47,476 nucleotides of DNA from Bacilli bacterium. GTDB lineage: Bacteria > Bacillota_I > Bacilli_A > RF39 > UBA660. Shown one piece after another: positions 3,669 to 42,188 of the stretch; the first letter of the stretch is position 1, and every line of letters starts with the position of its first letter. A model generated the notes under the pieces. The model did not search any database, had not been told where the DNA came from, and saw only the letters and a list, made by a program, of their open reading frames with translations. A program made the position numbers and the translations under genes. The DNA is taken from assembly GCA_017886705.1 (NCBI GenBank), contig JAGHJJ010000032.1, forward strand, positions 1 to 47,476, written 5' to 3'.

Positions 3669-3902
3669 AATTACCACCTACCAATAGTATAACACTATTC
3701 CCTGAATTCTTCTATAACCTTATGGGCATCGCCTCCTTTAATAATAATATTTTTAATGTTTTCTAATCCACATCCATCCTTTCCAAATCTATATAAAATA
3801 AATATTAATCATCTTAAATCTTTTTTCTATTTTTTCTTATCTATCATCCTCCTCTTGACAATATAACTATATCGTATAAATGTGTAAGAATTATTAAATA
3901 AT

Positions 3903-7675: not shown

Positions 7676-7718
7676 GACTCTACCTCCATGATACATTATA
7701 ACAAAGAAATGAGGAAAT

Positions 7719-8609
7719 ATGAAAAAAAATAAAAAAAGTAACGTAATTCTAATAATTTTAATCTGTCTAATGATTCTATACATAATCAATTCTACTTTAA
7801 TAACAAAACATATATTAATATATACCAAATTATTTTTAGAAAAATTATTTCCAGCAAGCTTTCTATTTTTTACTTTCTCTAGTCTACTAATAGAATATAA
7901 TATTATAGAAAAAATAAGTAAAACACTAAAAATAAATGGCGCTAATTTCTATGTAGTAGCAATGAGTCTAATTAGTGGATTCCCTAGTGGTAGTAAATAC
8001 ACCAAAGACTTATTAGAAAAAAACTTAATTACTGAAAAAAGTGCTAATTACTTAATCAAATTTACTCACTTTCCAAATCCTATTTTCATATTAGGACCAG
8101 TCTCTTTATTATTTCCAAATAAAACTTACGCTCTAAAAATATTAGTTTGCATTATCATAGCAAACTTTATAATAGCCATAACCACTTATCAAAAAGAAAA
8201 AAGCACACTACCATTACAAAGAAAAGAAAACATATCTTTTGCTAAAATATTACCAAAAGCAGTCATTTCGTCTATTAAAACAATCATAATTATATATGGT
8301 ACCTCTGTATTTTTCTATTTAATTATAACCATAATAAATCACTATATAAAACTTCCTATAAAAGAATATATTTTAATGAATGGATTTTTTGATTTAACAA
8401 ATGGAACATTTTTAACCAGTCTAATAACAAATCCTACAACAAGAGCACTTTATATTATTTTCTTCTTCTGTTTTGGAGGAATATCGGTACACATGCAAAC
8501 AAAAAGTATCATTGCTGATACTAAAATAAAATATAAGAACTTTTTGATTGCTAGAATATTTCAAACGATAATTGCTAGTATATTATTTTTATTAACTACT
8601 AATTGGTGA
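7719..8609 (+). CDS. YlbJ-like polytopic membrane protein (nucleoside-recognition/Gate-type)
   Basis: Multiple TM helices. The N-terminal LFLEKLFPASFLFFTFSSLL resembles the YlbJ family. It sits next to a ylbL-like gene, as in Bacillus. Confidence 0.5.
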   Translation: MKKNKKSNVILIILICLMILYIINSTLITKHILIYTKLFLEKLFPASFLFFTFSSLLIEYNIIEKISKTLKINGANFYVVAMSLISGFPSGSKYTKDLLEKNLITEKSANYLIKFTHFPNPIFILGPVSLLFPNKTYALKILVCIIIANFIIAITTYQKEKSTLPLQRKENISFAKILPKAVISSIKTIIIIYGTSVFFYLIITIINHYIKLPIKEYILMNGFFDLTNGTFLTSLITNPTTRALYIIFFFCFGGISVHMQTKSIIADTKIKYKNFLIARIFQTIIASILFLLTTNW

Positions 8610-9224
8610 AACAATATCGATAGAGTGTTTAGAAGCTAAATCTGGATGAGATAAAACAATTCGAATAGAAAAAATATTATCATTCGTATTAATACTAACT
8701 TCATTAATCTGTAAACTATAGATTGTATGCGTAGTAGCACTTCCATCATACGCTTGAATTTCTTCATGACCTAAATCAGGAAGAGGATACTCAGTCAAAT
8801 TTCCTTCTGGTCCGTAACTAATAGAAAACTCATCACTTTGATTAGGATCGATACCTCTAATAGTACATAAATCATCTACTTCTGCAGCATCAACAGCGGA
8901 ACATCCAAATACTTGTCTAACTTCTAAAATTCTTCGGCTCCCATCACGAAGTGTTAAAATAACACGATATCCTACAGGCTTACCTAATTCAACCATAGAC
9001 TCTGATTGAACAGCAGTAAGTCCTACTTTAATCAAATCATCTTGAATATCTTTGGTAAGTAAATTTTTATAAGTAACAAGACTAAGTTTATAAGAAGCAA
9101 CAGTTTCTCTAGTTTTTAATCCTGAAATACCATTATACATAGAAACTACGATAATAGCAACAATAACAAATGTTATTAAAATTTCAATTGCCGTCATACC
9201 TTTATTATTTAATTTTTTTATCAT
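8592..9224 (-). CDS. type IV pilin-like pseudopilin (prepilin-type N-terminal signal)
   Basis: MIKKLNNKG/MTAIEILITFVIVAIIVV has Gly at -1, Glu at +5 and a hydrophobic helix. I chose the internal ATG. Confidence 0.7.
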   Translation of the reverse strand: MIKKLNNKGMTAIEILITFVIVAIIVVSMYNGISGLKTRETVASYKLSLVTYKNLLTKDIQDDLIKVGLTAVQSESMVELGKPVGYRVILTLRDGSRRILEVRQVFGCSAVDAAEVDDLCTIRGIDPNQSDEFSISYGPEGNLTEYPLPDLGHEEIQAYDGSATTHTIYSLQINEVSINTNDNIFSIRIVLSHPDLASKHSIDIVSPISS

Positions 9225-9266
9225 ATCATCACCCTTATCCACTATATTTTTTCTATAACCTTATAA

Positions 9267-9875
9267 TTAAGTAGTTGGAGAAACAGGAGGTGTGACAGCA
9301 CCAGAAGTAGGTCTTAAAATCTCCATATTAGCATAAGTATAATAAGAATCACTATCCTCATCACTATCCATATTACGTTCAAATTCAATCAACACACGAT
9401 ATTGTGCACCATTTAAAGATGGAACTAAAAAATTAGGTAAAAACTCAAGATAGGAAGTAAAAGAACTTCCGAAAGAATTAGCCAAACTATCATCATCTTG
9501 CAATTTCTGTTTAAATTCCGTCATATCATAATCTGTAATGATTACCTGCTTAATATCCAAGCGATCCCAGAGATTAGTACAATACGTTGCTTCAGTAGCA
9601 ACAGTTAAATCACTACATTTAAAAGAAATATACTTATTACTACTAATAGTATCTGCAGGACCACCACTACGATAAAAATCATAAGCAGCACCTTGAATAA
9701 ATCTTTTCATCCAATAAGCACCATATTTGCTATCAACATCATCATAAAACTCTCTTCGTTCATATTCACCAGCTAAGGGATAAAAATTAATATAAATAAC
9801 TGAAAAAATTGCCATAACAAAAACAGTAACTACCAAAGTTTCAACTAAAACAAAGCCTTTATTATTTTTTTTCAT
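9267..9875 (-). CDS. type IV pilin-like pseudopilin (prepilin-type N-terminal signal)
   Basis: MKKNNKG/FVLVETLVVTVFVMAIF has Gly at -1, Phe at +1 and Glu at +5. Confidence 0.7.
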   Translation of the reverse strand: MKKNNKGFVLVETLVVTVFVMAIFSVIYINFYPLAGEYERREFYDDVDSKYGAYWMKRFIQGAAYDFYRSGGPADTISSNKYISFKCSDLTVATEATYCTNLWDRLDIKQVIITDYDMTEFKQKLQDDDSLANSFGSSFTSYLEFLPNFLVPSLNGAQYRVLIEFERNMDSDEDSDSYYTYANMEILRPTSGAVTPPVSPTT

Positions 9876-9984
9876 CTTTTCACATCTACTTTCTTGCTAT
9901 TCTTATAAAACTATTATATAATAAAGTAAGATAAAATACCATAGTAAAAAATAAAGAGAGCAAAAAGTAAAAGGGGTTGACACT

Positions 9985-11907
9985 ATGATAAAATTTGACT
10001 TTACAAAGACACCAATTACGCAAATCGCTGATTATATAATCATATCAGCTGCAAAATCAAATGCATCAGACATCCACTTTGATCCAAGAGAAGATGGTAT
10101 GATGGTACGGTTTCGTGTCGATGGAGATTTACAAAATTTTACATATATACCAAAAACATATGAAAGAAATTTAACTACAAGATTAAAATTATTGGCAAAC
10201 ATGAATATTACAGAATCTCGTCTACCCCAAGATGGAGCCATCAAAGGAAACTTTGGTGGTACTTATTTGGATATGCGTGTATCTTGTCTTCCCTTAAATG
10301 AAGGTGAAAAAATAGTTATTCGTATTCTAGACTATTCCAGAAGTTTACAAGGTTTAGATTATCTAGGTTTTAATGAATCTAATCTAGCAAGATTAAAACG
10401 TATGATTCAAGTACCTAATGGCATCATATTAATTACAGGTGCTACTGGTTCTGGTAAATCTACAACAGTATACTCTATACTACAAGCCTTAAATAAAGAA
10501 GAAACAAATATTATTACAGTAGAAGACCCTATCGAAATGAATATTGAAGGAATGAACCAAGTACAAGTAAATGCCGAAATAGGAATGACCTTCGCCGCAG
10601 CTCTTCGTTCCATACTACGTCAAGATCCAAACGTTATTCTAATTGGAGAAATTCGTGATAGTGAAACAGCTCAAATCGCAGTTCGTGCCGCTATCACAGG
10701 ACACTTAGTTCTATCAACAATCCATACCAACAATACATTATCTACTGTAGAACGTTTACTAGATATGAACGTAGAGCGTTACTTACTATCCACTGCCCTA
10801 ACCGGTATCATTTCACAAAGACTTGCCAAAAAAATTTGTACAAAATGTCGTGTAGAACGAGATACCTCTAAATTTGAAAAGAAAGTATTTAAAAAATATT
10901 TAAAAAAAGATATTGATAAAATATGGGACGCTAATCCAGATGGATGTGATGCTTGTCGTAAAGGTTATAAAGGCCGTGTTGCAATTCAAGAAGTACTAGA
11001 ATTAGATGATGAAATGCGTAATGCATTAAACAATGAAAATTTAAGTAAAGATGATTTAACAAAATTAGTTTATAGTGATAAAGTAATTACCATGTTACAA
11101 GATGCTCTAGGAAAAGTAGTCGATGGAACAACAAGCTTTGAAGAAGTACTACGTGTAATCGAAATAGAAGATGCAGAAGATTTCTTTGAAAATGATGTTG
11201 CTGAAAAACTAAAAGAAAAAGAGAAAGAAAAGGATGAAAAAATAAAAAAAGAACTAGAACTTCAAGAAGAAAAACAAAATAATGAAAAAGAAGAAACTAA
11301 AACTAATAAAAATGAATTAGAAGTAGTAACACTAAATACGATAGACAAAAAAGAGAATAAAAATCAAGAACAAACAAATCAAGTAATTCCTAAAGTAATT
11401 CCAACATCTGTCAATAAAGATGAACCACCTCAAGTAAAAGCAACAAACGCAAACAAGCCAATAAATACATTAGAAAAGATACAAAAGATTGATGAAAAAA
11501 ATGCAGAACCTACACTAACTTCTAAAATACCAATAAAACAAAATCCAATCTTAAAAACTACAAATATCCAGCCAGAAGAAACAGAAATATCACAAACAGC
11601 AGCAACAACAACACAACCGACAGAACAACAACCAGAACAACACCAAACTTTAACAATTCCAACAATCAACAAAAAAATTACAAATCCAGTTACTCTACCA
11701 ACAGGACAAATAAATAATAATATAAAACCTGTAGTACAGCCAGCAGAACAACTGCAAAACTTACAAAAACAAATAAAAACTCAACAAGAACAAAATAATA
11801 TTCAACAACCAAAAATAAATCCACAACCACAACCACAACCACAACAAGAACAAGAACCTCCCCTTCCACCAATACCACTAGTAAAAATAACTCCAAGTCA
11901 AACATAA
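9985..11907 (+). CDS. GspE/PilB/ComGA-family secretion ATPase with long low-complexity C-terminal tail
   Basis: Walker A GATGSGKST, Walker B/Asp box ILIGEIRD, His box GHLVLSTIHTN and a tetracysteine CTKC...CDAC. The core ends near residue 395. The remaining roughly 245 residues are K/E-rich and then Q/P/T/N-rich. Confidence 0.85.
   Translation: MIKFDFTKTPITQIADYIIISAAKSNASDIHFDPREDGMMVRFRVDGDLQNFTYIPKTYERNLTTRLKLLANMNITESRLPQDGAIKGNFGGTYLDMRVSCLPLNEGEKIVIRILDYSRSLQGLDYLGFNESNLARLKRMIQVPNGIILITGATGSGKSTTVYSILQALNKEETNIITVEDPIEMNIEGMNQVQVNAEIGMTFAAALRSILRQDPNVILIGEIRDSETAQIAVRAAITGHLVLSTIHTNNTLSTVERLLDMNVERYLLSTALTGIISQRLAKKICTKCRVERDTSKFEKKVFKKYLKKDIDKIWDANPDGCDACRKGYKGRVAIQEVLELDDEMRNALNNENLSKDDLTKLVYSDKVITMLQDALGKVVDGTTSFEEVLRVIEIEDAEDFFENDVAEKLKEKEKEKDEKIKKELELQEEKQNNEKEETKTNKNELEVVTLNTIDKKENKNQEQTNQVIPKVIPTSVNKDEPPQVKATNANKPINTLEKIQKIDEKNAEPTLTSKIPIKQNPILKTTNIQPEETEISQTAATTTQPTEQQPEQHQTLTIPTINKKITNPVTLPTGQINNNIKPVVQPAEQLQNLQKQIKTQQEQNNIQQPKINPQPQPQPQQEQEPPLPPIPLVKITPSQT
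11821..11844 (+). repeat. (CCACAA)x4 in-frame hexanucleotide microsatellite
   Basis: Exact ccacaaccacaaccacaaccacaa, encoding PQPQPQPQ in the ATPase tail. Confidence 0.9.
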
Positions 11908-12741: not shown

Positions 12742-13310
12742 CTATTATTATCATCAAAAGGGACAAGTAAAAACTTACGACTAGCTAAATAATCACACAT
12801 ATGAACAAAATTCTGATACTTTGTCTTAGGAGCTTCTAACACCTCATTACCATTATAATCCTGAGTCCAAGGTCCCATATGTGTTTTAATAACCGAACAA
12901 AGTAAATCAATCTCTTCATCACTCATAAGCAAATCTGCCTTATGTTCCATAATATAATTAGCCATTAAAATAGGATGATCAAAGCGAACATACTGTTCTT
13001 TAGGAATACCATGCTTAATTCCATCATGAAGTAAAAGTCCCATTAACATAATATCTTTCTCAATACTAGTATATTTATCTCCAATAGATGGATCTTGTAA
13101 TAACTCATACCCTATTCTAACTGCTGCCTTCGTATGACGAAGAAGTCCTCCTTCTCCTAAAGAATAACTAGGATGATATTTACCAGTAGAAGATGCAGGA
13201 ACTAAAAAAAAGTAATCTGGTAGTAGCTCTATCATCGTACGACAATCCTCTTGAATAGTCTCATCTTTAATATATCCTAATTCCACTTCAAACTCATCTA
13301 TTTTATTCAT
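12729..13310 (-). CDS. HD-domain phosphohydrolase
   Basis: Contains KYHP...H and LLLHDGIKHG (the HD motif). ATG at 13310 has a GGAGGAG SD and overlaps the hemW stop by 8 nt. Confidence 0.75.
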   Translation of the reverse strand: MNKIDEFEVELGYIKDETIQEDCRTMIELLPDYFFLVPASSTGKYHPSYSLGEGGLLRHTKAAVRIGYELLQDPSIGDKYTSIEKDIMLMGLLLHDGIKHGIPKEQYVRFDHPILMANYIMEHKADLLMSDEEIDLLCSVIKTHMGPWTQDYNGNEVLEAPKTKYQNFVHMCDYLASRKFLLVPFDDNNRISV

Positions 13311-14406
13311 AACAACACTCCTCCAATAATCTAACAAGGATTTCATTACTAAGATAAAAATATTTCTCTGGAATAGCTAAATACTCATCATCTTCTATAA
13401 GATAACCTTCTCTAACTAATTCTAAATAAGAATAGCAGTCTTCCAATTTCATTGAATATTTATCAAAAAAATTCTTCTTAGAAATACCTTTCTTAGTCCT
13501 TAAATTTAAAATCATTTCATATTCCATTTTATCATAAATGCTTAAATTTTCTTCCAGATATCGAAACTTCTTTTGTAAATAATGTGTAATACTACGAGTA
13601 TTAGTATAACGAATATCTCCTAAATATCCACTAGCACCAAGTCCAAACCCGTAATATTCCCGGTTCTGCCAGTAACATAAATTATGCCTTGAAGAATATC
13701 CCTCTTTATAAAAATTACTAATCTCATAATGCGTATAATCAGATAACTTAGAACAAATTACCTCATACATCTTTGCATCTAACTCTTCAGATATAGATTG
13801 TTCTTTGTCTAAATATAATTTCGTATGTTCTTCTAAAATTAACGAATAAGTAGAAATATGAGGAACATCTAGATTTTGAATAAAATTGATATCTTCTTCC
13901 ACCTCTTCTAAACTCTCTCCTAAAAAAGCATACATCAAATCAACATTAATATTACAAATACCAATCTTCTTACAATAAGCAATGATATGGCGAACATAAT
14001 CTAAATCCAAACTACGTCCCATCTTCTCTAAAATCCAAGCATGAGTAGACTCTAGACCAAAACTAATACGATTTACTCCATATTTCTTACAAATATCCAA
14101 CTTAGACTCTGTAATACTATCAAAATTTGCTTCAATCGTAACTTCACAAGAAGAAGATTTTTTTAAAACAGATAAAATAGAAAATAATTTTTCTAACTCA
14201 CTATCAGATAAACTACTAGGAGTTCCTCCTCCGATATAAATTGTATCTAACTCTTCCCCTTGATAATATGTAGCAATTTCTAACTGTAAAGAATCTAAAT
14301 ATTGAGAAACATACTTCCTATCGTAAAACAATTTACAAAAATCACAATAACTACAAATCTTTTTACAAAATGGAATATGAACATAACAATTTCTTACACT
14401 ACCCAT
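13303..14406 (-). CDS. hemW: radical SAM heme chaperone HemW (HemN-like, oxygen-independent coproporphyrinogen oxidase family)
   Basis: YVHIPFCKKICSYCDFC contains CX3CX2C, followed by IYIGGGTPS. The gene is near lepA, as is typical in Firmicutes. I prefer the start at MGSVRN. The track start at 14439 has no SD. Confidence 0.85.
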   Translation of the reverse strand: MGSVRNCYVHIPFCKKICSYCDFCKLFYDRKYVSQYLDSLQLEIATYYQGEELDTIYIGGGTPSSLSDSELEKLFSILSVLKKSSSCEVTIEANFDSITESKLDICKKYGVNRISFGLESTHAWILEKMGRSLDLDYVRHIIAYCKKIGICNINVDLMYAFLGESLEEVEEDINFIQNLDVPHISTYSLILEEHTKLYLDKEQSISEELDAKMYEVICSKLSDYTHYEISNFYKEGYSSRHNLCYWQNREYYGFGLGASGYLGDIRYTNTRSITHYLQKKFRYLEENLSIYDKMEYEMILNLRTKKGISKKNFFDKYSMKLEDCYSYLELVREGYLIEDDEYLAIPEKYFYLSNEILVRLLEECCYE

Positions 14407-14570
14407 GCAATACAACTTCCCTCTATTAGAACCTATCATCCGTAAACGATGCTTTAATGATTACCGAATCATAGATTTTCTCTGACTCAACGTATAAACT
14501 TTTTTGTACTTCACTTAATCTACAGATTTTTCCAAATTATTTAAACCAAGCCGGTAACACCATCACATAG

Positions 14571-30896: not shown

Positions 30897-31613
30897 TTAA
30901 AGTACTGCCGTATCTAATGCCAATTCTATCATCTGATTTAGTGATGTCTCTCTCTCCTCACTAGAAAGACTTCTCTTATCATAAAAAGAATCAACAACAG
31001 TCATCAAACAACTAGCTTCTCTACCTAGTTTTTTTGCAATATAAAACAAACCAAAAGCTTCCATTTCTACAGCTAAATAATCATCCCCTGGAAAATTAGT
31101 TCGAAAGACATCTTCACTATCTGTATATAAATCAAACACATCACTAGTAATAGTTTTACCAATTTTTACAGGAATATGTGCATCATCTGCAACTTTTTTA
31201 ATTTTATCATTCAAATTATGACTTGCTTCAATGTAATTAATATCTTGATTATCGAGCAACTGATCAAAATAACTTTTACAATAAGCACCAGTAGATAAAA
31301 CTACATCTAATAATTTTACATCTTTATGAAAAGAACCAGACGTACCAATACGAATAATTTTTTCTACATGATAAAACTTATATAATTCATAAGAATAAAT
31401 TCCAATACTCGGAACTCCCATACCAGAAGCAAATACGGTAACTCTCTTTCCCTTATAATATCCAGTATATCCGAACATATTTCTAACAGTATTAATTAAT
31501 TTATAATCCGTTAAAAAATTTTCTGCAATATACTTGGCACGTAAGGGATCTCCTGGCATAAGTACAACTTCTGCAATATCTTCTAACTTACTTTCTATAT
31601 GTGGCGTAGCCAT
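30897..31613 (-). CDS. deoD: purine nucleoside phosphorylase, DeoD type
   Basis: MATPHIE...VVLMPGDPLRAKYIAENFL and the VEMEA block closely match hexameric DeoD. Confidence 0.92.
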   Translation of the reverse strand: MATPHIESKLEDIAEVVLMPGDPLRAKYIAENFLTDYKLINTVRNMFGYTGYYKGKRVTVFASGMGVPSIGIYSYELYKFYHVEKIIRIGTSGSFHKDVKLLDVVLSTGAYCKSYFDQLLDNQDINYIEASHNLNDKIKKVADDAHIPVKIGKTITSDVFDLYTDSEDVFRTNFPGDDYLAVEMEAFGLFYIAKKLGREASCLMTVVDSFYDKRSLSSEERETSLNQMIELALDTAVL

Positions 31614-35742: not shown

Positions 35743-36858
35743 TTATAATACTTTTTGATAAACTTTATTATTCCCAGAAAAATCCCAATGAATTCCTTCT
35801 TCTTTAGTAATATGATAATTATTATCACATCGTAAAAAATCAACATCCATAGAAGAAACACTACCCTTTTCATAATGCAGATAAGAAAGATAAGCAACAA
35901 CACCTCCTAAATTATATTTACTAGTAGAAGGAACTCCTAAATAAATGATTTGTTTTTCAGGAGTAAAAGGACAATTAGAACTATAAATAAAACCATTATG
36001 TAAATGAGCAGACCATAAAACATCATGGCGATTATCTAGCCAGCGTTTTTCTTGTGCTAAATCATCAAGACCAGAGATTTTCACATCAGGTCGAATCCAA
36101 CTAAAGTATAACCGGTGACTAAAATGCATAGAAATATTAGAATCATGAGAAAGATTAGGAAAATTAATAATAAACTTTTCTCTAGGAATAACGAAATAAC
36201 TAGGTCGATAACTATTTAATCCTCTTAAATCAAAAGTATAATGTTGCCTATAATCCACTCTAGGATGAAAAAATCCTTGAATAAACTCATCATGATTTCC
36301 AATATTAGCATAAGTTCTCATCTCCCTAGGAGATGGATTAGGATAAAAAGAAATAAAAGAATTAAGCTGCTCAAGCATTTCCTCTTTAGAAAATATTTTA
36401 TTCTTGTCTTTTGGTCCATGAAACTGATCTCCTAACAAAAAACATACAGTAGCTCCTTCTCCAATGACAAAGTCATATAAGCTATCTAACATACGAAAAT
36501 CTTCAAACTCTGGATTTCCAATATGTGTATCAGCCATATGCATAAAAATCTTATCAGAAACACAATCATCCACCGTAAAAGAATAATGATGTCTAGAATA
36601 AGAAGAATTACGAAGTCTAGAACTATCGATATAAGAATACACTGCTCCTTGATTCCAATAATCATCTCGTTGAATAGAACCTTCATAAGTAAGTAAATCT
36701 GAAATAACGCCAAAAAAATCTTTATCATCAAGCAAAATTCCTTTCGCTTCTAACAAAGATTTTAACTCTAAATCAGTAATACCATCCGGATGTTGCTGGA
36801 TTATATCACAAACCGTACAATATAAAGGCAGTCTCTTGTAGTAATATTCAAAATCCAT
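35743..36858 (-). CDS. calcineurin-like metallophosphoesterase with about 100-aa N-terminal extra domain
   Basis: Contains MADTHIG (DxH), LLGDQFHG (GD), GNHDE (GNHD/E) and SAHLHNG. ATG at 36858 has an AGGTGA SD. Confidence 0.75.
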   Translation of the reverse strand: MDFEYYYKRLPLYCTVCDIIQQHPDGITDLELKSLLEAKGILLDDKDFFGVISDLLTYEGSIQRDDYWNQGAVYSYIDSSRLRNSSYSRHHYSFTVDDCVSDKIFMHMADTHIGNPEFEDFRMLDSLYDFVIGEGATVCFLLGDQFHGPKDKNKIFSKEEMLEQLNSFISFYPNPSPREMRTYANIGNHDEFIQGFFHPRVDYRQHYTFDLRGLNSYRPSYFVIPREKFIINFPNLSHDSNISMHFSHRLYFSWIRPDVKISGLDDLAQEKRWLDNRHDVLWSAHLHNGFIYSSNCPFTPEKQIIYLGVPSTSKYNLGGVVAYLSYLHYEKGSVSSMDVDFLRCDNNYHITKEEGIHWDFSGNNKVYQKVL

Positions 36859-36936
36859 ATACTTCACCTATTAGTAAAATATTATAATGGATTTAAATCA
36901 AAGATACAATAAATTTTTATTTATGATTAACTTCAC

Positions 36937-37518
36937 TTACACCGTCATTAAAAAAATAGTATCTAACTTTTGTTTTAAATCTTTTGCAGCAAGACTTCTA
37001 GCACTGCACTGATTCTTCTCATCAAAAGTTAACTCAGCTAAAGTCTTCCCATTAGGAAGTTCAAAAATAGAGTCAAACCCGAAACCAAGTTCTCCTCGAG
37101 GAAAAGAAGCAATTCTTCCTTCTAATATACCCGTACCAGTAATAGGCTTCTCTAAAGAATCATAATACACTAACTGACAAACAACTTTAGCACTCCGATT
37201 AGATAAACCTTGACATTTTTCTATAATTGCTAAATTTCTCTCCTCATCAGTAGCATTCTCTCCCAAAAAACGATGCGTCATAACTCCAGGCCAGCCATCT
37301 AGAGAATCAATGCAAAGACCGGAATCATCAGCTAAAGATGCCTGCTTCGTAATAGAATAAACTTCCTTAGCTTTCTTAGTAGCATTTCCTAAAAAACTAT
37401 CCTGGTCTTCCAAAACATCAACACTAACAGAAACATCTGCTAAAGATAAAATTTCATAATTTGATAATATCTCTCTAATTTCTTTTAATTTTCCCTGATT
37501 ATTAGTTGCAAAAATCAT
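36937..37518 (-). CDS. rdgB: non-canonical purine NTP pyrophosphatase (RdgB/HAM1 family)
   Basis: IFATNNQGKLKE and GELGFGFDSIF signatures. The start lies 8 nt after the upstream stop and has an AGGAGAA SD. Confidence 0.9.
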   Translation of the reverse strand: MIFATNNQGKLKEIREILSNYEILSLADVSVSVDVLEDQDSFLGNATKKAKEVYSITKQASLADDSGLCIDSLDGWPGVMTHRFLGENATDEERNLAIIEKCQGLSNRSAKVVCQLVYYDSLEKPITGTGILEGRIASFPRGELGFGFDSIFELPNGKTLAELTFDEKNQCSARSLAAKDLKQKLDTIFLMTV

Positions 37519-37526
37519 AAATTCTC

Positions 37527-38417
37527 CTATTTCATAATAATATCTTTTACTTTTTCTACTTGTTCATTTAATGTTAAATTAGTACAGTCTACTAAAAACA
37601 ATTTCCCTTCTAACATATCATGTTCCATCATATATTGATAGGTTTCAAAATAAAGTTGATTATATTGATAAGCCTCTTTATCAAAATCACTAATTACATC
37701 TCGCATAGAAATTCTACGTTCCAATTCTATCTTATCATAATTTACTAAAAAAACAACTTTATCATCATGAGTTTTTAAATATTCTCGATATCGTTTTACC
37801 CTTTCTTCCATAGGAACAGTAAATAACATATATTTAGAAAACATATCCATAGAGCGATCTTTACAAATAATACCAGACAAAAGAAGTCTCTGAATAGTAA
37901 CACTCTTTCCTACCGCATCAGTTCCTTCAATAATTGTAGAATTAGATAAAATACTTCCCTGATAAATTTCACTATTTTCATATCTTTTATTACCTGTAAC
38001 TTCCACAAATCCCTTAGGAGGCTGATATCCATCTAAAGAAGCCTCATCACTAGCTACTTCAACCATAATCATAGAAACCGGCTCTAAAAAACAGTCAACA
38101 TCAATATCATAAGGACCATCTTTATAATATTTACGAATTTTGCGAATCTTTCTACCTGTATCTCGTAAAACTTTTGTAAACTCTTCTTCACTAATCTCTA
38201 CAACATCAGTAACTTTACCCTGTTTAAAATTTCTAGTATATTTCATCTGCCCGTGATCATTATATCTACGATACTTATAACCATTACAAAAGGTCTGCGT
38301 TAGTTCATACTCTTCAATTTCCCTCATACTACCTAAATATTCTTCTAAAAAATTTTCTTTAGTAGGAATAAATTTTCTTTCTTCATTATTGAGTTTACCA
38401 AGTCTTAAAACTACCAT
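37527..38417 (-). CDS. CYTH-domain :: Tmk-like P-loop kinase fusion protein
   Basis: Residues 10-150 carry CYTH hallmarks: NEERKFI (a variant of ExExK with Asn in place of the first Glu), RKIRKYY, DIDVDCF, MVEVAS and VEVTGNKRYENSEI. Residues 160-296 start with IIEGTDAVGKS (nt 37902-37925). This matches the EGTDxxGK P-loop of the Tmk-like gene at 11980..12648. Confidence 0.75.
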   Translation of the reverse strand: MVVLRLGKLNNEERKFIPTKENFLEEYLGSMREIEEYELTQTFCNGYKYRRYNDHGQMKYTRNFKQGKVTDVVEISEEEFTKVLRDTGRKIRKIRKYYKDGPYDIDVDCFLEPVSMIMVEVASDEASLDGYQPPKGFVEVTGNKRYENSEIYQGSILSNSTIIEGTDAVGKSVTIQRLLLSGIICKDRSMDMFSKYMLFTVPMEERVKRYREYLKTHDDKVVFLVNYDKIELERRISMRDVISDFDKEAYQYNQLYFETYQYMMEHDMLEGKLFLVDCTNLTLNEQVEKVKDIIMK

Positions 38418-39769
38418 GTCATCTTTCCTTTCTCAAAATATTCTAAAACATCATCCGTACCAGAAACTGGAATCTCCACAACATTTTCTTTCCCTGCAAC
38501 TAGTCTTGCAGATACAATAGGATACCAATTAGAAGACTTAAGTTCATAGGAAACACTATCCTCCACTTGATAAAAAATAATAATTTTTTTCTTCTTAAAT
38601 GAAGCATAAGTAAGTTCTGTAATACTCCCTGGACTTAATTTTGAATCAAAATAAGCAATAAAAATATCACACTTATCAATCAAATCATTTTCTGTTTGCA
38701 CCACCTCACTGCAAACAGAAGAAGTAAGATTTCCATCACTAGCCATTTCATTATAAAAAGGACCTAAATATTGATATAACAATTTACCATCACTATTTTT
38801 AATAAAGCTATGATTATTAAAATTAGTAAAATCATCTTCATTTCCTATCAATTTAGCACGAAAATCTTCCTTCAAAGTAAATCTTTTTTCATCTACCATT
38901 TTCTTATTAAATTGACAAGCAAAATAAACCTTAGGTAAAAACGGAAGTTCTACATCCTCTAATTGATAATTAACAAATCGATTACCATAATAAACCAAAT
39001 CAGAAAAACCATACTTCATCTTTTTCCAAGAAAAGTATACTTCATGTTTGTCATCAACTTTCCAAGAAAAAGTATCATACGCTTCTCCTGAATAAGTAAA
39101 ATTCTGATCTAAAATTGCTTTAATTTCTTCTCTTTTATCTTTTGATATTGCATTTTCTACAATCCAAAGTGAGCGAGGATTATCAACAAGACCAGTTTTA
39201 GTATTCACATTTAAAAGCTTTAAAGCAAGTGTTTCTATATTAGGATATTTTTGTAAAAACGCTTTTATTTCATCAACCATTTTAGAATAATTACTTTTTA
39301 ACAAAACATAATTGAGACGAATCCTAGCCTTAGAAAATGCATCTGTTTGAAAATAATTATGATCATATCCTAACACATTTCTATCTAAATTCGTATCAAT
39401 AGATGTCGTAGTAACTTCAAACACCCAGTTATGAGAAGTAAAAAGATTATACTTTTCTGCTTCTTCCTTTCGAAATATATTTCCTGAAGTTAATACTCTT
39501 TTTACCGGAATATCATAATCATCGAATAATTCAACTATTTCTTTCAACTTTTTGAAAGAATGTTTTGTTGGCTCTCCATTACCACCAATCGTTACATAGT
39601 GAAATTGATACCCTAGTTCTTTTAACTGCCCAACATACAAACTAAGCATATGAATATCATCTTTTACTACTTCCCATTTTGTAATTTTAGCAGTGCAATA
39701 AGGACAATTCTTATCACAAGAAAAATCACTTAAAATAATTTCTAATTCCTTAAACTTTTTTTCTTTCAT
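38411..39769 (-). CDS. radical SAM domain :: nucleoside 2-deoxyribosyltransferase/TIR-like (SLOG-type Rossmannoid) fusion protein
   Basis: CDKNCPYC (CX3CX2C) is at nt 39695-39718 and IGGNGEP lies about 40 residues later. The C-terminal roughly 170 aa (nt 38414-38932) has KVYFACQF, GPFY and CDIFIAYFDSKLSPGSITELTYA, which resemble the NDT-fold core with its conserved Glu. ATG at 39769 has a GGTGA SD and overlaps the pnuC stop by 20 nt. The track start at 39826 is TTG. Confidence 0.7.
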   Translation of the reverse strand: MKEKKFKELEIILSDFSCDKNCPYCTAKITKWEVVKDDIHMLSLYVGQLKELGYQFHYVTIGGNGEPTKHSFKKLKEIVELFDDYDIPVKRVLTSGNIFRKEEAEKYNLFTSHNWVFEVTTTSIDTNLDRNVLGYDHNYFQTDAFSKARIRLNYVLLKSNYSKMVDEIKAFLQKYPNIETLALKLLNVNTKTGLVDNPRSLWIVENAISKDKREEIKAILDQNFTYSGEAYDTFSWKVDDKHEVYFSWKKMKYGFSDLVYYGNRFVNYQLEDVELPFLPKVYFACQFNKKMVDEKRFTLKEDFRAKLIGNEDDFTNFNNHSFIKNSDGKLLYQYLGPFYNEMASDGNLTSSVCSEVVQTENDLIDKCDIFIAYFDSKLSPGSITELTYASFKKKKIIIFYQVEDSVSYELKSSNWYPIVSARLVAGKENVVEIPVSGTDDVLEYFEKGKMTW

Positions 39770-40346
39770 TTGTATCACCATTTCCTTTTGCTTCTTTATG
39801 CCATGCCCAAAAAGTACCAAGTGCAAGTACTACCCAGATAATATTTAATGCCATTAAATAAATTGCCTTATCTGGTAAAGTAAAATAAACATAAGCCATT
39901 AAAATATCATCTACAAACCAAACAATCCAAGAATCAACCCGCTTAAATGCCATCATTAATGTTGCAGTAAATCCCATTCCCGTAGTAATAGCATCCAAAA
40001 AAGGAGATGGATCATCAGTAGATTTTAAAAACATATACATTCCTACACTAATTCCCAAAAACATAACACAATAAAATATTCTTTCTTTAAAATTACAATA
40101 ACGAATTTTATTTTCATCTCCAAATATCTTCTTAGAAATATTGATAGAGTACCAAGTAAATAAACCTAATAGTCCAAAAATAACATAAACTAAATTTTCT
40201 ACAACATCTCCATAAAGTTTAGCAGTAAAAGAAAAGACAGTTAACGTAACAATATTTAGTAAATAAAATATCCAATTTTCCTTTCTTTTAAACAAAATTA
40301 AAATACTTTGTATTAAACCACAACAAGCAGTAAAAATCTCTAACAT
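39750..40346 (-). CDS. pnuC: PnuC-family (nicotinamide riboside/nucleoside-type) uptake permease, substrate unknown
   Basis: Seven predicted TM helices. Family blocks include ENWIFYLLN, LYGDVVENLVYVIFGLLGLFTWY, PFLDAITTGMGFTATLMMAFKRVDSWIVWFVDD and GTFWAW. The ATG overlaps the upstream stop (ATGTTAG). Confidence 0.85.
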   Translation of the reverse strand: MLEIFTACCGLIQSILILFKRKENWIFYLLNIVTLTVFSFTAKLYGDVVENLVYVIFGLLGLFTWYSINISKKIFGDENKIRYCNFKERIFYCVMFLGISVGMYMFLKSTDDPSPFLDAITTGMGFTATLMMAFKRVDSWIVWFVDDILMAYVYFTLPDKAIYLMALNIIWVVLALGTFWAWHKEAKGNGDTNERKKV

Positions 40347-41182
40347 TTCTTATACTCCTTCGATGAACGATTTACAGGCAATAAAGCTGAATAAGTAGAA
40401 ATAAACCCTAAAGAAACTTCACTTATAAAACTTTCTACTCTACTTTTATCAAAAACATTCAATGAACTATCTTCTACTTGATAAGACTCTTGAATAAATG
40501 TCGCTGTCTTAGAAATAACACTAATAATATTTTGATAATCTACCTCTTCAATTCCAGGATTAACAAAATCCAAATCAACATTTTCAAGTAATTTCTCTAG
40601 ATTAAAACAAGTTCCATACTGTTCTAACAACAACTTATTCATGACTGTGTAATCATGATAAATACTAACATTGCTATCATGACTCCAAAACTCTCCTACT
40701 GGATAAACTTCTCCACTCTTTTTCACTCGCATAGAAACCAAATCAGCAATATACTTTGTCTCAATTCCATCCTTATCTAAACACTCAAAAGTATCATTAA
40801 ACAAATCATGAAAGAACATTTTATCAACATATAAATGATACAAATATCCAAGAGCAGTATAATCTTTGCTAACAAAATCCTGATATTTTTCTATAAAGCT
40901 AGAAACATTAGGTGCTTGAATAGAAAGTTTATAATCTTCTTTATCCCGAAAATGAGTACTTCTCTTTTCCTCTTGCGTCTCCGCTCTCATTTTCTTTTTA
41001 AATGCTTTTTGTTCTTCAATACTCAAATTATCAGGAATTTGTTTTTTAATTCTAGAAGAATCAACAATCAAATTACCTAATAAAAATTGTTTTTTAGCAA
41101 CATCCGATAATAAAACGCCCTCTCTTTCCAAATTGTTTAAAAACGCTTCACCTGCAATATGGTGAATAACAAATGATGCCAT
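40340..41182 (-). CDS. soluble His/Asp-motif protein, possible metal-dependent hydrolase (zinc phospholipase C / P1-nuclease-like?), first gene of the operon
   Basis: N-terminal VIHHIAGEAF, then LGNLIVDS, STHFRD and LYHLYVDKMFFHD. These are spaced like metal-ligand motifs. The family assignment is tentative. An AAGGAG SD lies 7 nt upstream of the ATG. Confidence 0.45.
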   Translation of the reverse strand: MASFVIHHIAGEAFLNNLEREGVLLSDVAKKQFLLGNLIVDSSRIKKQIPDNLSIEEQKAFKKKMRAETQEEKRSTHFRDKEDYKLSIQAPNVSSFIEKYQDFVSKDYTALGYLYHLYVDKMFFHDLFNDTFECLDKDGIETKYIADLVSMRVKKSGEVYPVGEFWSHDSNVSIYHDYTVMNKLLLEQYGTCFNLEKLLENVDLDFVNPGIEEVDYQNIISVISKTATFIQESYQVEDSSLNVFDKSRVESFISEVSLGFISTYSALLPVNRSSKEYKKC

Positions 41183-41213
41183 GCAATCACTCCTTTTCTT
41201 GTCACATCACAAC

Positions 41214-41242
41214 TTGTATTATAGAAGTGTTTGTATTATAAT
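41214..41242 (+). promoter_or_regulatory. candidate sigma-A promoter of the LysR gene
   Basis: TTGTAT (41214-41219), a 17-nt spacer, then TATAAT (41237-41242). Confidence 0.4.
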
Positions 41243-41268
41243 AAAAATACATTTTATTCATATCAGAA

Positions 41269-41283
41269 ATAACTATAAGTTAT
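41269..41283. promoter_or_regulatory. LysR-type T-N11-A dyad (candidate operator)
   Basis: ATAACT-ATA-AGTTAT has perfect 6-bp inverted arms and fits T-N11-A. It sits between the candidate -10 box and the lysR SD, in the 115-nt divergent intergenic region. Confidence 0.4.
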
Positions 41284-41297
41284 ATAAAGGAGAACAC

Positions 41298-42188
41298 ATG
41301 AACATAAATTTTGAATTATATAAAACATTTTATAGTGTCGCAAAAAATCAAAACATAACAAAAGCAGCTAGAGAACTCATGATAAGTCAACCAGCTGTCA
41401 GTAAATCCATAAAAACATTAGAAGAACAACTAAACTGTTCTCTTTTTATCAGAAACAAATACGGTGTGACTCTAACCTCAGAAGGCCAACTATTCTATGA
41501 AAACATAAAACTTGCTATAGAAATGATTGAACATGCAGAAGATGAGCTACAAGAGACATTAAACTTAGAATATGGAACACTATCCCTTGGTGTAAGTAAT
41601 AGCTTAACTCAGAACTATTTGTTGCCATATATTAAAATATTTCATGAAAAATATCCTAATATTAAAATCAAAATATCAACATCTCCTACTTTTCAACTAA
41701 TTACTCAAGCAAGAAATGGTCTAATTGATTTCATCATATTAAACCTTCCCTATAAATTACCATCAGACTTTAAAGAACAAAGGTTAAAAGAAATACATGA
41801 TTGTTTTATCGCAAATAACAACTGGTCCGAACTAAAAAGCAAGACAATAGACCTAGAAAAATTACAAAACTATCCTTTAATTTTATTAGCTAAAGGTTCA
41901 AATACTAGAACATTCTTAGATGAAGTTTGTGAAGAACATAATATATTACTAAATCCTGAAATGGAACTAGCTAGTTACTCTTTAGTAGTAGCTTTCACCA
42001 AAATAGGCCTAGGACTTGGCTACGCTACCAAAGAATTCATGCAACAGGAAATAGACTCAAAAGAATTATTTGAAATAAAAACAAATCCACAAATTCCACC
42101 ACGGTCTATAGGTGTAACGCATTTAAAACAAAAACAACTAAATAAGGCATCTCTTGCCTTCTTAGACCTATTAAAAGAAAAAAATTAG
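41298..42188 (+). CDS. LysR-family transcriptional regulator
   Basis: The N-terminal HTH is FYSVAKNQNITKAARELMISQPAVSKSIKTLEEQL. The C-terminal domain is of the substrate-binding type. ATG at 41298 has an AAGGAG SD. The track N-terminal extension is non-coding. Confidence 0.9.
   Translation: MNINFELYKTFYSVAKNQNITKAARELMISQPAVSKSIKTLEEQLNCSLFIRNKYGVTLTSEGQLFYENIKLAIEMIEHAEDELQETLNLEYGTLSLGVSNSLTQNYLLPYIKIFHEKYPNIKIKISTSPTFQLITQARNGLIDFIILNLPYKLPSDFKEQRLKEIHDCFIANNNWSELKSKTIDLEKLQNYPLILLAKGSNTRTFLDEVCEEHNILLNPEMELASYSLVVAFTKIGLGLGYATKEFMQQEIDSKELFEIKTNPQIPPRSIGVTHLKQKQLNKASLAFLDLLKEKN

Follow-up and report, generated by a model that had tools for sequence, protein, structure and literature searches.

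The locus occupies positions 36,937 to 42,188 of a 47,476-nucleotide stretch of Bacilli bacterium DNA (contig JAGHJJ010000032.1, assembly GCA_017886705.1), the whole of which is termed the window here. It consists of four overlapping minus-strand genes, with rdgB immediately downstream and a divergent LysR gene upstream. The features identified are listed below, in the direction of operon transcription.

41299..42188 (+). LysR-type regulator, divergent from the operon
41269..41283 (no strand). LysR-box dyad ATAAC-TATAA-GTTAT (T-N11-A at 41270-41282)
41238..41266 (-). Promoter-like site for the operon (CTGATA-17-TATTAT)
40340..41182 (-). gA, a His/Asp protein of unknown family, probably a metal-dependent hydrolase; accessory gene
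39750..40346 (-). Pnu-family permease (PnuC-like); core gene
38942..39769 (-). Radical-SAM (rSAM) domain of gC (38411-39769), with a single CxxxCxxC cluster site; core gene
38411..38941 (-). NDT-like domain of gC, a MilB/BcmB-type N-glycosidase or transferase; core gene
37953..38417 (-). gD N-terminal CYTH/triphosphate-tunnel domain; accessory gene
37527..37952 (-). gD C-terminal P-loop kinase-like domain; accessory gene
36937..37518 (-). RdgB/HAM1 non-canonical NTP pyrophosphatase; possible accessory gene
35743..36867 (-). Metallophosphoesterase-like protein (MPE), with uncertain linkage to the module

Gene arrangement and regulatory region

The arrangement given in the preliminary description was confirmed. 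Direct reading of the junctions showed ATGTTAG at 40340-40346, ATGGTAG at 38411-38417, and an 8-nt gap before rdgB. The gC ORF opens at TTG 39826, and a 20-nt overlap with the permease gene (39750-39769) is obtained if the ATG at 39769 is the start, which homologues such as protein P0004 also use; a GTG at 39778 or an ATG at 39781 would give 29-32 nt. The LysR ORF opens at 41181, however the likely start is the ATG at 41299, which is preceded by a GGAG site, giving a divergent region of 116 nt rather than the 115 nt first stated.

The dyad lies 3 nt upstream of a -35-like hexamer for the operon. ATAAC-N5-GTTAT, with a variable spacer, recurs at the same place in 10 of 13 LysR-linked relatives, including the split-type loci L034, L053 and L058, so it is more than chance. 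The promoter-like site was found by consensus scan, and cross-species comparison placed it inside a region conserved across relatives (AAAAGTATTTTTATTATA...TATAATACAAG); its role is inferred from sequence alone. No terminator-like site lies inside the span from gA to MPE.

Domain identities

The domain assignments proposed initially are borne out, but only by profile and structure methods. Of the Pfam families anticipated, PF04973 (the permease) reached its threshold, PF15891, PF05014 and PF04055 were sub-threshold, and PF01928 and PF02223 did not hit; within the operon and its flanking regulator, only PnuC, RdgB and LysR reached the Pfam threshold. LysR matched PF00126 (6e-20) and PF03466 (6e-33), and RdgB matched PF01725 (3e-54) and TIGR00042 above its cut-off.

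The permease matches PF04973 (3e-31) and passes the NCBIfam PnuC equivalog cut-off (TIGR01528, 77.5 bits against 42.45). It carries the W-I-V-W-F-V-D-D family motif, but of the four nicotinamide-riboside (NR) contacts in the solved PnuC (4QTN) three are changed, and only one is retained, in variant form. The transported compound therefore cannot be inferred from family membership.

In the rSAM domain, CDKNCPYC and GNGEP are invariant. Its AF2 model has a pLDDT of 90, with the nearest Foldseek match being MoaA (4e-8), alongside SuiB, BlsE and anSME. The family is tiny, with 151 hits among 1.84 billion representative proteins; it is unnamed in Pfam, NCBIfam and PADLOC, and no paper describing it was found. 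Distant relatives score best against MoaA and prokaryotic viperin, and a sister clade is fused to cytidylate kinase, which points to a nucleotide substrate. The NDT-like domain gave profile matches in the PDB to BcmB (9e-10), MilB (2e-5) and BlsM (9e-5), with the BcmB match covering the catalytic S-x-G-T-x-x-E-x-G-W-A segment. Foldseek agreed, finding MilB/BcmB with target-normalised TM of 0.55-0.73. Within the S-x-G-T-x-x-E-L-x-x-A motif, G105 and E109 are invariant and S103 is nearly so.

The gD protein is a CYTH fold plus a P-loop kinase by predicted structure. The CYTH domain (AF2 pLDDT 90.5) matched NE1496 (1e-7) and SaTTM (2e-7) in Foldseek, and phrog_6660 (4e-12), but has N-E-E-R-K in place of E-x-E-x-K, with an invariant Asn (N11) replacing the first Glu of the signature. 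The C-terminal domain carries a Walker A motif (EGTDAVGKS), and its Foldseek matches include guanylate kinase 2anc (4e-4) and the AtTTM1 kinase+TTM tandem 7z67 (1e-4). The preliminary description termed it Tmk-like, however it is not detectably Tmk, and is better described as a P-loop NMP-kinase-like fold. For gA, no Pfam, NCBIfam or PDB hit was obtained, although H7, D41, H77, H116, D120, D177 and N182 are invariant in a family alignment, and a divergent member weakly hits Zn-dependent PLC (PF00882, 4e-3). The window copy of MPE has no Pfam hit, but is 30% identical to the Metallophos protein that follows the module in locus L003.

A conserved trio with lineage-specific accessories

Conserved co-occurrence, proposed beforehand as a test of the cluster, was strongly upheld, but for three components rather than four genes. 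PnuC-like, NDT-like and rSAM genes are adjacent in about 57 of 61 species-representative genomes from at least four phyla-level groups, comprising gut Bacilli/Mycoplasmatota, Clostridia, Alphaproteobacteria and Gastranaerophilales, with the carriers being small gut MAG lineages. The same holds in metagenomic contigs chosen for divergence. The permease gene lies directly upstream of NDT/rSAM in 59 of 63 loci. The trio alone is also carried on a 416-kb viral-catalogue contig and a 652-kb tRNA-rich contig, while a 673-kb tRNA-rich contig carries a PnuC::NDT fusion with no rSAM within 8 kb. This carriage, read as that of giant phages, was not foreseen in the preliminary description, nor were the NAD-like accessory genes of other phyla.

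Rosetta-stone fusions further connect the components: rSAM::NDT in the window clade, NDT::rSAM in P0241 and P0243, PnuC::NDT in P0490, gD::rSAM::NDT in P0058 (locus L069), and c25::rSAM::NDT in P0080.

The remaining genes are accessories of particular lineages. Among 63 loci, gD is found directly downstream of the core in 20, the His/Asp protein in 17, a divergent LysR in 12, and RdgB inside or next to the module, at varying positions, in 16; the CYTH-kinase, His/Asp protein and LysR belong to some Bacilli lineages. MPE is present in 12 loci, always together with LysR, and in sister genomes L010 and L015 a DHH phosphoesterase occupies the RdgB slot. Other lineages instead carry a NadM-like nucleotidyltransferase (24 loci, directly upstream), a CofE-like ligase, an HD-like protein, an OprB porin (adjacent in 15 loci) or an NrtR-like regulator (17 loci).

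Proposed function and alternatives

The initial interpretation is partly supported: the cluster is operon-like and LysR-flanked, its domain composition holds, and uptake plus processing (the first of two models put forward) fits better than nucleotide synthesis, whereas the conserved unit, the kinase assignment, the CYTH signature and the reliance on a kinase for trapping require correction. With moderate confidence, the locus is best read as a nucleoside uptake-and-remodelling pathway built round the three-part core. The small gut MAG carriers, the adjacent OprB porins and the LysR or NrtR-like regulators make a salvage-type setting. In this view, the Pnu-type facilitator, as inferred from its family, would let an uncharged or cationic nucleoside-like compound diffuse in, with an adjacent OprB porin serving the outer membrane in Gram-negative carriers. 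The NDT-like enzyme, which keeps the catalytic Glu and the Ser-x-Gly-Thr phosphate-binding-type motif, would then cleave or exchange the N-glycosidic bond of the imported compound or of its 5'-phosphate, making uptake irreversible; this is inferred from motif, fold and a permease fusion. That imported substrate must be trapped by a kinase is not established here, and the PnuC::NDT fusion suggests the glycosidase itself can be the trap. Finally, the small single-cluster rSAM enzyme, physically coupled to the glycosidase, would carry out a radical transformation of the nucleotide or released base into a usable product. In the window's lineage the CYTH::P-loop-kinase protein probably supplies or trims the phosphorylated form, RdgB (or a DHH, HD-like or MazG-like protein in other lineages) would remove or convert off-pathway nucleotides, and LysR would control transcription from the conserved box.

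Gene order, overlaps, domain identities, conservation, fusions and the conserved operator are established by this analysis, whereas the substrate, the order of the glycosidase and rSAM steps, the direction of transport and all enzymatic activity are matters of inference. A pyridine (NAD-related) riboside and a queuosine-like modified nucleoside are the leading candidate substrates. Several findings temper the model. No riboswitch that would name the ligand was found in the window or in 8 other loci, and as Pnu facilitators are bidirectional in principle (PMC5749112), export of a product is not excluded. Most carriers have no kinase in the cluster, which sits uneasily with a glycosidase that has a phosphate-type motif, and the PnuC::NDT locus without a nearby rSAM gene (L081) indicates that the rSAM step is not always linked. 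In addition, the model assigns no firm step to the phosphoesterase-type accessory genes (HD-like, DHH, CYTH, RdgB, MPE and gA).

The leading alternative, although held with low confidence, is a variant of NAD-precursor salvage, in which NR, nicotinic-acid riboside or a related pyridine riboside is imported, NDT and rSAM process or exchange the pyridine base, and the CYTH::kinase in Bacilli, or the NadM-like adenylyltransferase plus CofE-like ligase in Alphaproteobacteria, completes the route to NAD. Besides the PnuC equivalog match, the best hits of the small nucleotidyltransferase are all NMN adenylyltransferases (NF002243 8e-15, TIGR01527 3e-14), the NrtR-like regulators carry the NrtR winged-helix domain, and gD and the NadM-like gene never co-occur (0 loci). 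Locus L028 has a gD::NrtR-like fusion, recalling the regulator+kinase design of NadR, and phages are known to import NR through PnuC to rebuild NAD (NARP3, PMC13464706). However, the NMNAT and NrtR hits are far below curated cut-offs (55 against 127 bits and 39 against 400 bits, respectively), Pfam does not recognise the regulators' N-terminal half as Nudix, the NR contacts are mostly changed, and no NAD riboswitch was found in the nine loci searched. No known NAD route needs a rSAM enzyme or an NMP glycosidase, cleaving NMN or NR would destroy the precursor, and no NadR, NadV, PncA or PncB lies nearby.

Queuosine-type salvage by non-orthologous parts is less likely. Here the permease would import queuosine or another 7-deazapurine or hypermodified nucleoside, the NDT-like enzyme would release the base, and the rSAM would convert it to a form usable by the cell's tRNA-guanine transglycosylase or a phage DNA-modifying enzyme. 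In its three-part logic of transporter, N-glycosidase and rSAM this would mirror QueT/QueK/QueL of Clostridioides difficile (PMC11570991, PMC11130926). Distribution is restricted to animal-gut, small-genome lineages, and gut genomes are reported to lack identified Q-precursor transporters (PMC11130926); the PnuC::NDT fusion implies base release at entry, and an acidic D-D pair lies in the permease motif. The tRNA-rich contigs have multiple tRNA-Tyr/Asp/His genes near the module, although this enrichment is not significant (6 of 21 and 4 of 12). Against this, no tgt, queA, queG or queH lies within 8 kb in any of 63 loci, no preQ1 riboswitch was found in the loci searched, and the window rSAM matches QueE models only at E about 0.08. 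Cytidylate-kinase::rSAM relatives and the CMP-glycosidase affinity of the NDT domain point to pyrimidine nucleotides rather than a free deazapurine base.

Synthesis and release of a modified nucleotide or nucleoside, the second model of the preliminary description, is doubtful. A kinase would feed an NTP to a viperin-like rSAM, CYTH or RdgB would strip the phosphates, the NDT-like enzyme would edit or detoxify the product, and the equilibrative Pnu transporter (PMC5749112) would let the nucleoside out to act as an antiviral or antimetabolite. A weak PADLOC hit to viperins associated with kinases (pVip, 6e-6), the scores of distant relatives against viperin_w_prok, and NTP-pyrophosphatase-type neighbours (CYTH, RdgB, MazG-like) are consistent with this, and the cytidylate-kinase::rSAM fusions, one of which lies next to an Apyc1-like MBL gene, recall CMPK2-viperin. 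However, the window protein does not reach any viperin model, there are no other PADLOC defence hits, and the setting is conserved housekeeping synteny rather than a defence island. Kinases are absent from two-thirds of loci, the carriers are reduced-genome, auxotroph-like lineages with porins and nutrient-type regulators, and the permease is the gene most tightly linked to the enzymes and is fused to the glycosidase, which is odd for a detoxifying exporter.

Deoxynucleotide supply, in which a PnuN-like permease imports deoxynucleosides (a subgroup proposed in PMC7749635, citing Rodionov and Gelfand 2005), the NDT-like enzyme redistributes deoxyribose among bases, the kinase phosphorylates, RdgB or the HD-like protein cleans the pool, and the rSAM performs an unprecedented sugar deoxygenation or related step, is very unlikely: although the NDT superfamily includes deoxyribosyltransferases and dNMP hydrolases, RdgB, HD-like and MazG-like proteins are typical dNTP-pool sanitisers and large phages need dNTPs, the NDT domain is much closer to ribonucleotide (CMP) glycosidases (9e-10) than to deoxyribosyltransferases (5e-3), and no nrd genes lie nearby.

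No described pathway matching the cluster was found in Pfam, NCBIfam, PADLOC, PHROGs or the literature searched. The nearest named relatives of the rSAM enzyme are the NTP-using MoaA and viperin, and the NDT-like enzyme is of the MilB/BcmB type.

The operon and its predicted products

The open reading frame map and the sequences read directly at the gene junctions confirm the observation made in the preliminary description, of four minus-strand genes with overlapping stop and start codons, followed closely by rdgB and flanked by a divergent LysR gene. The genes of the locus are as follows:

40340-41182, minus strand: gA, a His/Asp protein
39750-40346, minus strand: a PnuC-like permease gene
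38411-39769, minus strand: gC, a radical-SAM (rSAM)::NDT-like fusion
37527-38417, minus strand: gD, a CYTH::P-loop-kinase-like fusion
36937-37518: rdgB, starting 8 nt after gD
35743-36867: a metallophosphoesterase-like (MPE) gene

The overlaps are ATGTTAG, a 20-nt overlap if the ATG at 39769 is used (as it is by homologues), and ATGGTAG. No terminator-like site lies inside the gene string. The divergent LysR protein has both the HTH_1 and the LysR substrate domains, and its RBS-preceded ATG at 41299 leaves 116 nt between the two start codons. The dyad ATAAC-TATAA-GTTAT at 41269-41283 is a T-N11-A box, lying 3 nt upstream of a -35-like hexamer for the operon, and ATAAC-N5-GTTAT with a different spacer sequence recurs at the equivalent position in 10 of 13 LysR-linked relatives, so the dyad is more than chance. 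A strongly conserved promoter region follows it. Besides the dyad, the intergenic region (41183-41298, and the equivalent regions of the related loci L009-L015, L034 and L053) has a highly conserved AAAAGTATTTTTATTATA ... TATAATACAAG segment shared by distant carriers, which may be a second operator or an unusually constrained promoter.

Single-sequence scans against Pfam, NCBIfam, PADLOC and PHROG reached threshold only for PnuC, RdgB and LysR. The permease scores 109 bits against PF04973 (3e-31; threshold 27.3) and 77.5 bits against TIGR01528 (cut-off 42.45). It carries the WxxW(x)3D/N motif of TM6 (PMC5749112), with W140-I-V-W143-F-V-D-D147 aligning with W182..N189 of 4QTN, and W-[FL]-[VI]-D-D-I-L-M is kept in relatives. 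The nicotinamide riboside (NR)-coordinating residues Q124, Q196, N214 and Y242 of N. mucosa PnuC (numbering of PMC13464706) align, however, to G58, T129, D147 and W171, of which only the D/N position is an allowed variant, although this rests on a pairwise HMMER alignment of moderate reliability. The permease therefore belongs to the Pnu family, but does not satisfy this criterion for PnuC sensu stricto, nor is it paired with a NadR-type kinase, as no NadR was found in any locus.

The identity of gC emerged only from profiles and structure prediction. In its N-terminal half, C18, C22 and C25 (CDKNCPYC) and G63-N-G-E-P67 are invariant in alignments of 30 and of 25 sequences, with no other conserved cysteines, indicating a single-cluster rSAM domain. 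An AlphaFold model (pLDDT 90.2) has a predicted partial TIM-barrel fold, with Foldseek hits to MoaA (4e-8), BlsE (5e-6), SuiB, anSME and HydE. The Pfam score of the window protein itself is below threshold (13.6 against 29.5), but relatives pass. A profile of the C-terminal domain matches the CMP N-glycosidase BcmB (residues 85-138) at E=9e-10, and also MilB and BlsM, across the S-x-G-T-x-x-E-x-G-W-A catalytic segment, in which E109 and G105 are invariant and S103 is nearly so; Y6 in the first strand is likewise invariant. Foldseek finds MilB and BcmB with target-normalised TM 0.54-0.73, whereas PF15891 and PF05014 remain below threshold.

The model of gD (pLDDT 90.5) shows a predicted N-terminal CYTH/triphosphate-tunnel fold, with hits to NE1496 (1e-7; target-normalised TM 0.64), SaTTM and class IV adenylyl cyclases, and a C-terminal P-loop kinase-like fold matching guanylate kinase (4e-4); the Arabidopsis TTM1 kinase+TTM tandem is also hit. 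In place of the E-x-E-x-K signature, the sequence reads N11-E-E13-R-K15, with N11 invariant in 19 and in 22 sequences, so catalytic competence is uncertain. The kinase-like half had been proposed to be Tmk-like (thymidylate kinase), but there is no PF02223 hit at E<=1, and only the Walker A EGTDxVGK resembles Tmk. The gA family is without database matches, and has invariant His and Asp positions (H7, D41, H77, H116, D120, D177) and one weak hit to Zn-dependent phospholipase C. Profiles of the rSAM, gD, gA and HD-like c2a families searched against the PDB found nothing significant. No Pfam, NCBIfam or PADLOC model covers these four families, and the only PHROG match among them is phrog_6660, a family of unknown function, to gD's CYTH half.

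Elsewhere in the window, a PilB/T2SSE-type ATPase at 9985-11907 on the plus strand (PF00437, 4e-121 over aa 9-390) carries a C-terminal tail of about 250 aa that is low-complexity and rich in K, E, Q and P, explaining the AT-skew spike of 0.458 at 11-12 kb. A second, ordinary radical-SAM gene at 13303-14439 (minus strand) sits next to lepA and is probably HemW-like.

A conserved trio with lineage-specific accessory genes

The window is 99% identical to an uncultured gut Mycoplasmatota MAG, yet encodes PBP2 and a LysM-GH25 lysozyme, so the organism has a cell wall. A scan of one genome per species found 61 loci, in gut Bacilli/Tenericutes-labelled MAGs, Clostridia MAGs, gut Alphaproteobacteria (including Ca. 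Enterousia), Gastranaerophilales, and one Uhrbacteria MAG. Gene content was tabulated for these 61 loci plus two others, L069 and L070.

Gene content of module loci (number of 63 loci carrying each gene)
Core: PnuC-like, 59
Core: NDT-like, 60
Core: rSAM, 61
Accessory: gD, 20
Accessory: gA-like, 17
Accessory: RdgB, 16
Accessory: LysR, 12
Accessory: MPE, 12
Accessory: NrtR-like winged-helix regulator, 17
Accessory: c2 cluster, HD-pattern (c2a) and/or DHH phosphoesterase module, sometimes fused, 32
Accessory: NadM-like nucleotidyltransferase, 24
Accessory: CofE-like ligase, 19
Accessory: OprB porin, 15

The three core genes are almost always contiguous, in the order PnuC, NDT, rSAM where the genes are split, and PnuC then rSAM::NDT in the window's clade. 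Conserved co-occurrence, set beforehand as a test of the proposed system, was therefore found for these three genes, and the functional unit must be redrawn: the core is PnuC-like + NDT-like + rSAM, with the CYTH::kinase, the His/Asp protein, LysR and probably RdgB being accessories of the window's lineage. gD and the NadM-like gene never co-occur.

Fusions link several of these genes. Both orders of NDT and rSAM exist, the window type and the reverse in the proteins P0241 and P0243, the former with a PnuC gene directly upstream. P0058 is a gD::rSAM::NDT protein sitting in an otherwise syntenic LysR-gA-PnuC locus, and P0490 (347 aa) is a PnuC::NDT fusion. In locus L028 (9353-11026), gD is fused to the NrtR-like regulator (557 aa), a kinase+regulator design reminiscent of NadR. 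A recurrent helical protein of about 210 aa and unknown function, c25, sharing a Y-x-[LF]-R-R-F-[LIV]-K motif, sits between PnuC and rSAM::NDT (L001, 5366-6001; L011-L013, about 7302-7976; L083, 8609-9232), and is fused in front of rSAM::NDT in P0080.

The families are small. A profile search of 1.84 billion representative proteins returned only 151 rSAM relatives at E<=1e-3, while gD has 156 clusters, all about 296 aa and all unnamed, and the permease subfamily has 134 clusters. The permease search, which revealed the PnuC::NDT fusion, returned only close, module-linked relatives. gD is 58-69% identical between the fused-type and split-type clades (for example 2602-3492 of L018 against 37527-38417 of the window), whereas their rSAM domains are only about 42% identical, suggesting either that gD is under much stronger constraint or that it has been exchanged laterally. 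A sister branch of the rSAM is fused to cytidylate kinase (P0272 and P0273), and the most distant members score best against MoaA and prokaryotic viperin models, far below their cut-offs. At the P0272 locus (L078, 951-3210), the fusion is followed by an MBL-fold gene whose Pfam hits include the anti-Pycsar Apyc1 family, with no PnuC or NDT, so this may be a different, possibly conflict-related, system; a 188-aa neighbour in L078 was considered CYTH-like, but hhalign gave 1% probability and Pfam gave nothing. In the Ca. Uhrbacteria locus L062 (3688-5530), two tandem paralogues of the rSAM (320 and 304 aa) have no PnuC or NDT neighbour.

The trio is also present on a 416-kb IMG/VR contig (L071) and the related 166-kb scaffold L006. 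L083, a 652-kb contig, carries PnuC, a c25-like gene and rSAM::NDT (8001-10569), with four tandem tRNA-Tyr(GTA) genes (3459-3806) 4.3 kb upstream; its rSAM reading frame is broken near an A6G5 run, representing a frameshift, a sequencing error or a pseudogene. L081, a 673-kb contig of 31% GC that is probably a megaphage or a very small genome, carries P0490 (8001-9044) with no rSAM gene within 8 kb, among 21 tRNA genes including 3 Tyr(GTA), 2 Asp(GTC) and 1 His(GTG). Both L083 and L081 have the module surrounded by tRNA arrays. No kinase accompanies the trio on these contigs. In locus L004 (4342-5253), a called gene next to the module has two in-frame TAG codons, reflecting either TAG reassignment (an alternative-code phage) or a pseudogene. 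Among annotated phage genomes (INPHARED) there was no tblastn hit for the rSAM domain, and a BFVD fold search gave only generic rSAM and NDT hits. A PurA-like gene after the module in L001 looks like an ordinary bacterial-type PurA by length and by its GDEGKGK motif, and was not taken as evidence for a Z-base phage.

Inferred mechanism and candidate substrates

The tight linkage and the fusions argue that the three proteins act on one small molecule in sequence. Pnu proteins are equilibrative facilitators that depend on intracellular conversion of the substrate (PMC5749112), and here the near-constant converting enzymes are an N-glycosidase-like protein and an rSAM, the PnuC::NDT fusion suggesting that glycosidic cleavage or exchange can itself be the trap. 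In MilB, BcmB and Rcl, the Ser-x-Gly-Thr motif binds a 5'-phosphate. The nearest relatives being CMP glycosidases, the cytidylate-kinase::rSAM relatives, the MoaA/viperin-like fold and the many invariant Lys and Arg residues all point the same way, and together suggest that at least one step works on a phosphorylated nucleotide, although the PnuC::NDT fusion would also fit a nucleoside substrate. That would give gD's kinase domain a role, as well as the NTP or phosphoester hydrolases around the core (CYTH, RdgB, MazG-like in L070, HD-like and DHH).

The scheme favoured, with moderate confidence, is therefore uptake, then phosphorylation where a kinase is present, then radical transformation and glycosidic cleavage, in either order. 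Gene order, overlaps, linkage, fusions and the recurrence of the dyad are established by the analysis, whereas transport, the enzymatic activities (including any hydrolysis of a nucleoside 5'-monophosphate), the sequence of steps and the nature of the substrate are inferred from family, motif and predicted fold. The interpretation in the preliminary description is partly supported: its claim of an undescribed nucleoside system is supported, while its four-gene unit must be redrawn and its Tmk-like call for the kinase has no PF02223 match.

Of the candidate substrates, an NAD-related riboside is suggested by the PnuC equivalog score, the NadM-like and NrtR-like neighbours, and the NadR-like regulator+kinase fusion. 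However, those neighbour hits are sub-threshold, three of the four NR contacts of 4QTN are changed, and NAD salvage has no known need for these enzymes. A queuosine-like nucleoside is suggested by the identical logic of QueT/QueK/QueL (PMC11570991), the gut-restricted, reduced-genome distribution, and reported gaps in Q-precursor transport (PMC11130926), but no tgt or que gene lies within 8 kb in any of 63 loci, and no IunH-type gene is present. Searches against Rfam at gathering threshold, using the window and 8 loci, found only tRNAs, with no TPP, FMN, B12, preQ1 or NAD riboswitch to name the ligand. Export of a viperin-like product and deoxynucleotide supply are both less likely. Salvage of the cobalamin lower ligand (alpha-ribazole) was set aside in the absence of a B12 riboswitch or cob genes, and 5'-deoxyadenosine clearance by the NDT domain was considered, but the window already has a PNP/UDP-family nucleoside phosphorylase or nucleosidase 6 kb from the operon (30897-31613, minus strand), and this idea does not explain the permease.

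More speculatively, and only as a tentative possibility, the trio may be a previously unknown micronutrient-salvage pathway of the animal gut, shared by reduced-genome bacteria of several phyla and by megaphages. In this view, the Pnu permease is coupled directly to an N-glycosidase as the trapping step, a group translocation by glycosidic cleavage or base exchange instead of phosphorylation, and a new radical-SAM family then converts the released nucleotide or base into an essential cofactor or tRNA-modification precursor, such as a missing route for queuosine-type or pyridine-type precursors that current gut metabolic reconstructions cannot account for.

A gene trio this tightly linked, across about 60 species and at least four phyla-level groups, with five kinds of gene fusion and carriage on giant tRNA-rich and viral-catalogue contigs, is almost certainly a pathway, yet none of its three proteins has a name, a curated model or a paper. 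The carriers are small-genome, largely uncultured gut lineages whose nutritional dependencies are poorly understood, including RF39-like Bacilli, gut Alphaproteobacteria and Gastranaerophilales, and knowing what they import could explain auxotrophies, help cultivation and reveal a metabolite exchanged in the gut. If the scheme holds, it would extend the Pnu paradigm of a facilitator paired with a kinase trap to a glycosidase or radical-SAM trap, add a new radical-SAM reaction on a nucleotide or base, and identify a new auxiliary metabolic module of huge phages, in a system small enough (three genes, or two with the fusion) for direct test in E. coli.

Comparison with known systems

Full-text literature searches found no description of the module. 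A permease with dedicated cytoplasmic processing enzymes is a familiar arrangement; what differs here is the identity of the partners, and there is a real chance that the chemistry is new.

The module works like the Pnu permease and trapping-enzyme pairs (PnuC/NadR, PnuT/thiamine pyrophosphokinase, PnuX/riboflavin kinase), in that a facilitator with the family motif is encoded next to the cytoplasmic enzymes that would act on the imported compound, phages carry it too, and in some Bacilli a kinase-containing protein (gD) lies in the operon. It is not one of these pairs, as the near-invariant partners are an NDT-like N-glycosidase and a radical-SAM enzyme rather than a kinase, one lineage fuses the glycosidase to the permease, and no NadR is present, the sub-threshold NadM-like gene occurring in 24 loci and gD in 20 others. 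The phage system NARP3 (PMC13464706) was likewise excluded, being PnuC + NadR-like with no rSAM or NDT.

Queuosine salvage of Clostridioides difficile, comprising the QueT/QrtT transporter, the QueK nucleoside hydrolase and the QueL radical-SAM queuine lyase (Yuan et al. 2019, as summarised in PMC11570991), has the same three-function logic of importing a nucleoside, cutting the glycosidic bond and reworking the base with a radical-SAM enzyme, and also a gut setting. The module does not appear to be a member of this system, its transporter being Pnu instead of ECF and its glycosidase having the NDT instead of the IunH fold, with no linkage to tgt or que genes.

The CMP/hmCMP N-glycosidases MilB, BcmB and BlsM of nucleoside-antibiotic and bacimethrin pathways (PDB 4jem, 4jen, 5vto) are the best profile and fold matches of the NDT-like domain and share its catalytic and phosphate-binding segment. 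In the blasticidin pathway, BlsM works alongside a radical-SAM enzyme (BlsE, PDB 7vob) that is also among the fold hits. However, sequence identity is below 20%, there is no glycosyltransferase, CMP hydroxymethylase or other antibiotic-pathway gene, the domain is coupled to a permease, and the carriers are reduced-genome gut bacteria rather than actinomycetes.

With MoaA (GTP 3',8-cyclase) and the viperins, including prokaryotic viperins with adjacent nucleotide kinases, the rSAM shares a small partial-TIM-barrel core, MoaA being the best fold match and both the best named-family matches of distant relatives; a sister clade is fused to cytidylate kinase, and NMP-kinase-like and NTP-pyrophosphatase-type neighbours are present. 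It is not a viperin system, as no NCBIfam viperin model is hit by the window protein at E<=1 and PADLOC pVip scores only 23.9 bits (E=6e-6), no MoaA model is reached, and there is no second Fe-S cluster as in MoaA. The flanks are housekeeping genes (FtsK, EF-P, LepA, PBP) in synteny conserved across species rather than a defence island, and the rSAM is almost always paired with an N-glycosidase-like gene and a permease.

Finally, gD combines in one polypeptide the two folds of Arabidopsis TTM1/TTM2 (a uridine-kinase-like P-loop domain and a CYTH/TTM domain), with PDB 7z67 among its fold hits, but in reversed order, without a membrane anchor and with Asn replacing the first Glu of ExExK, in a narrow bacterial family that is always next to the module.
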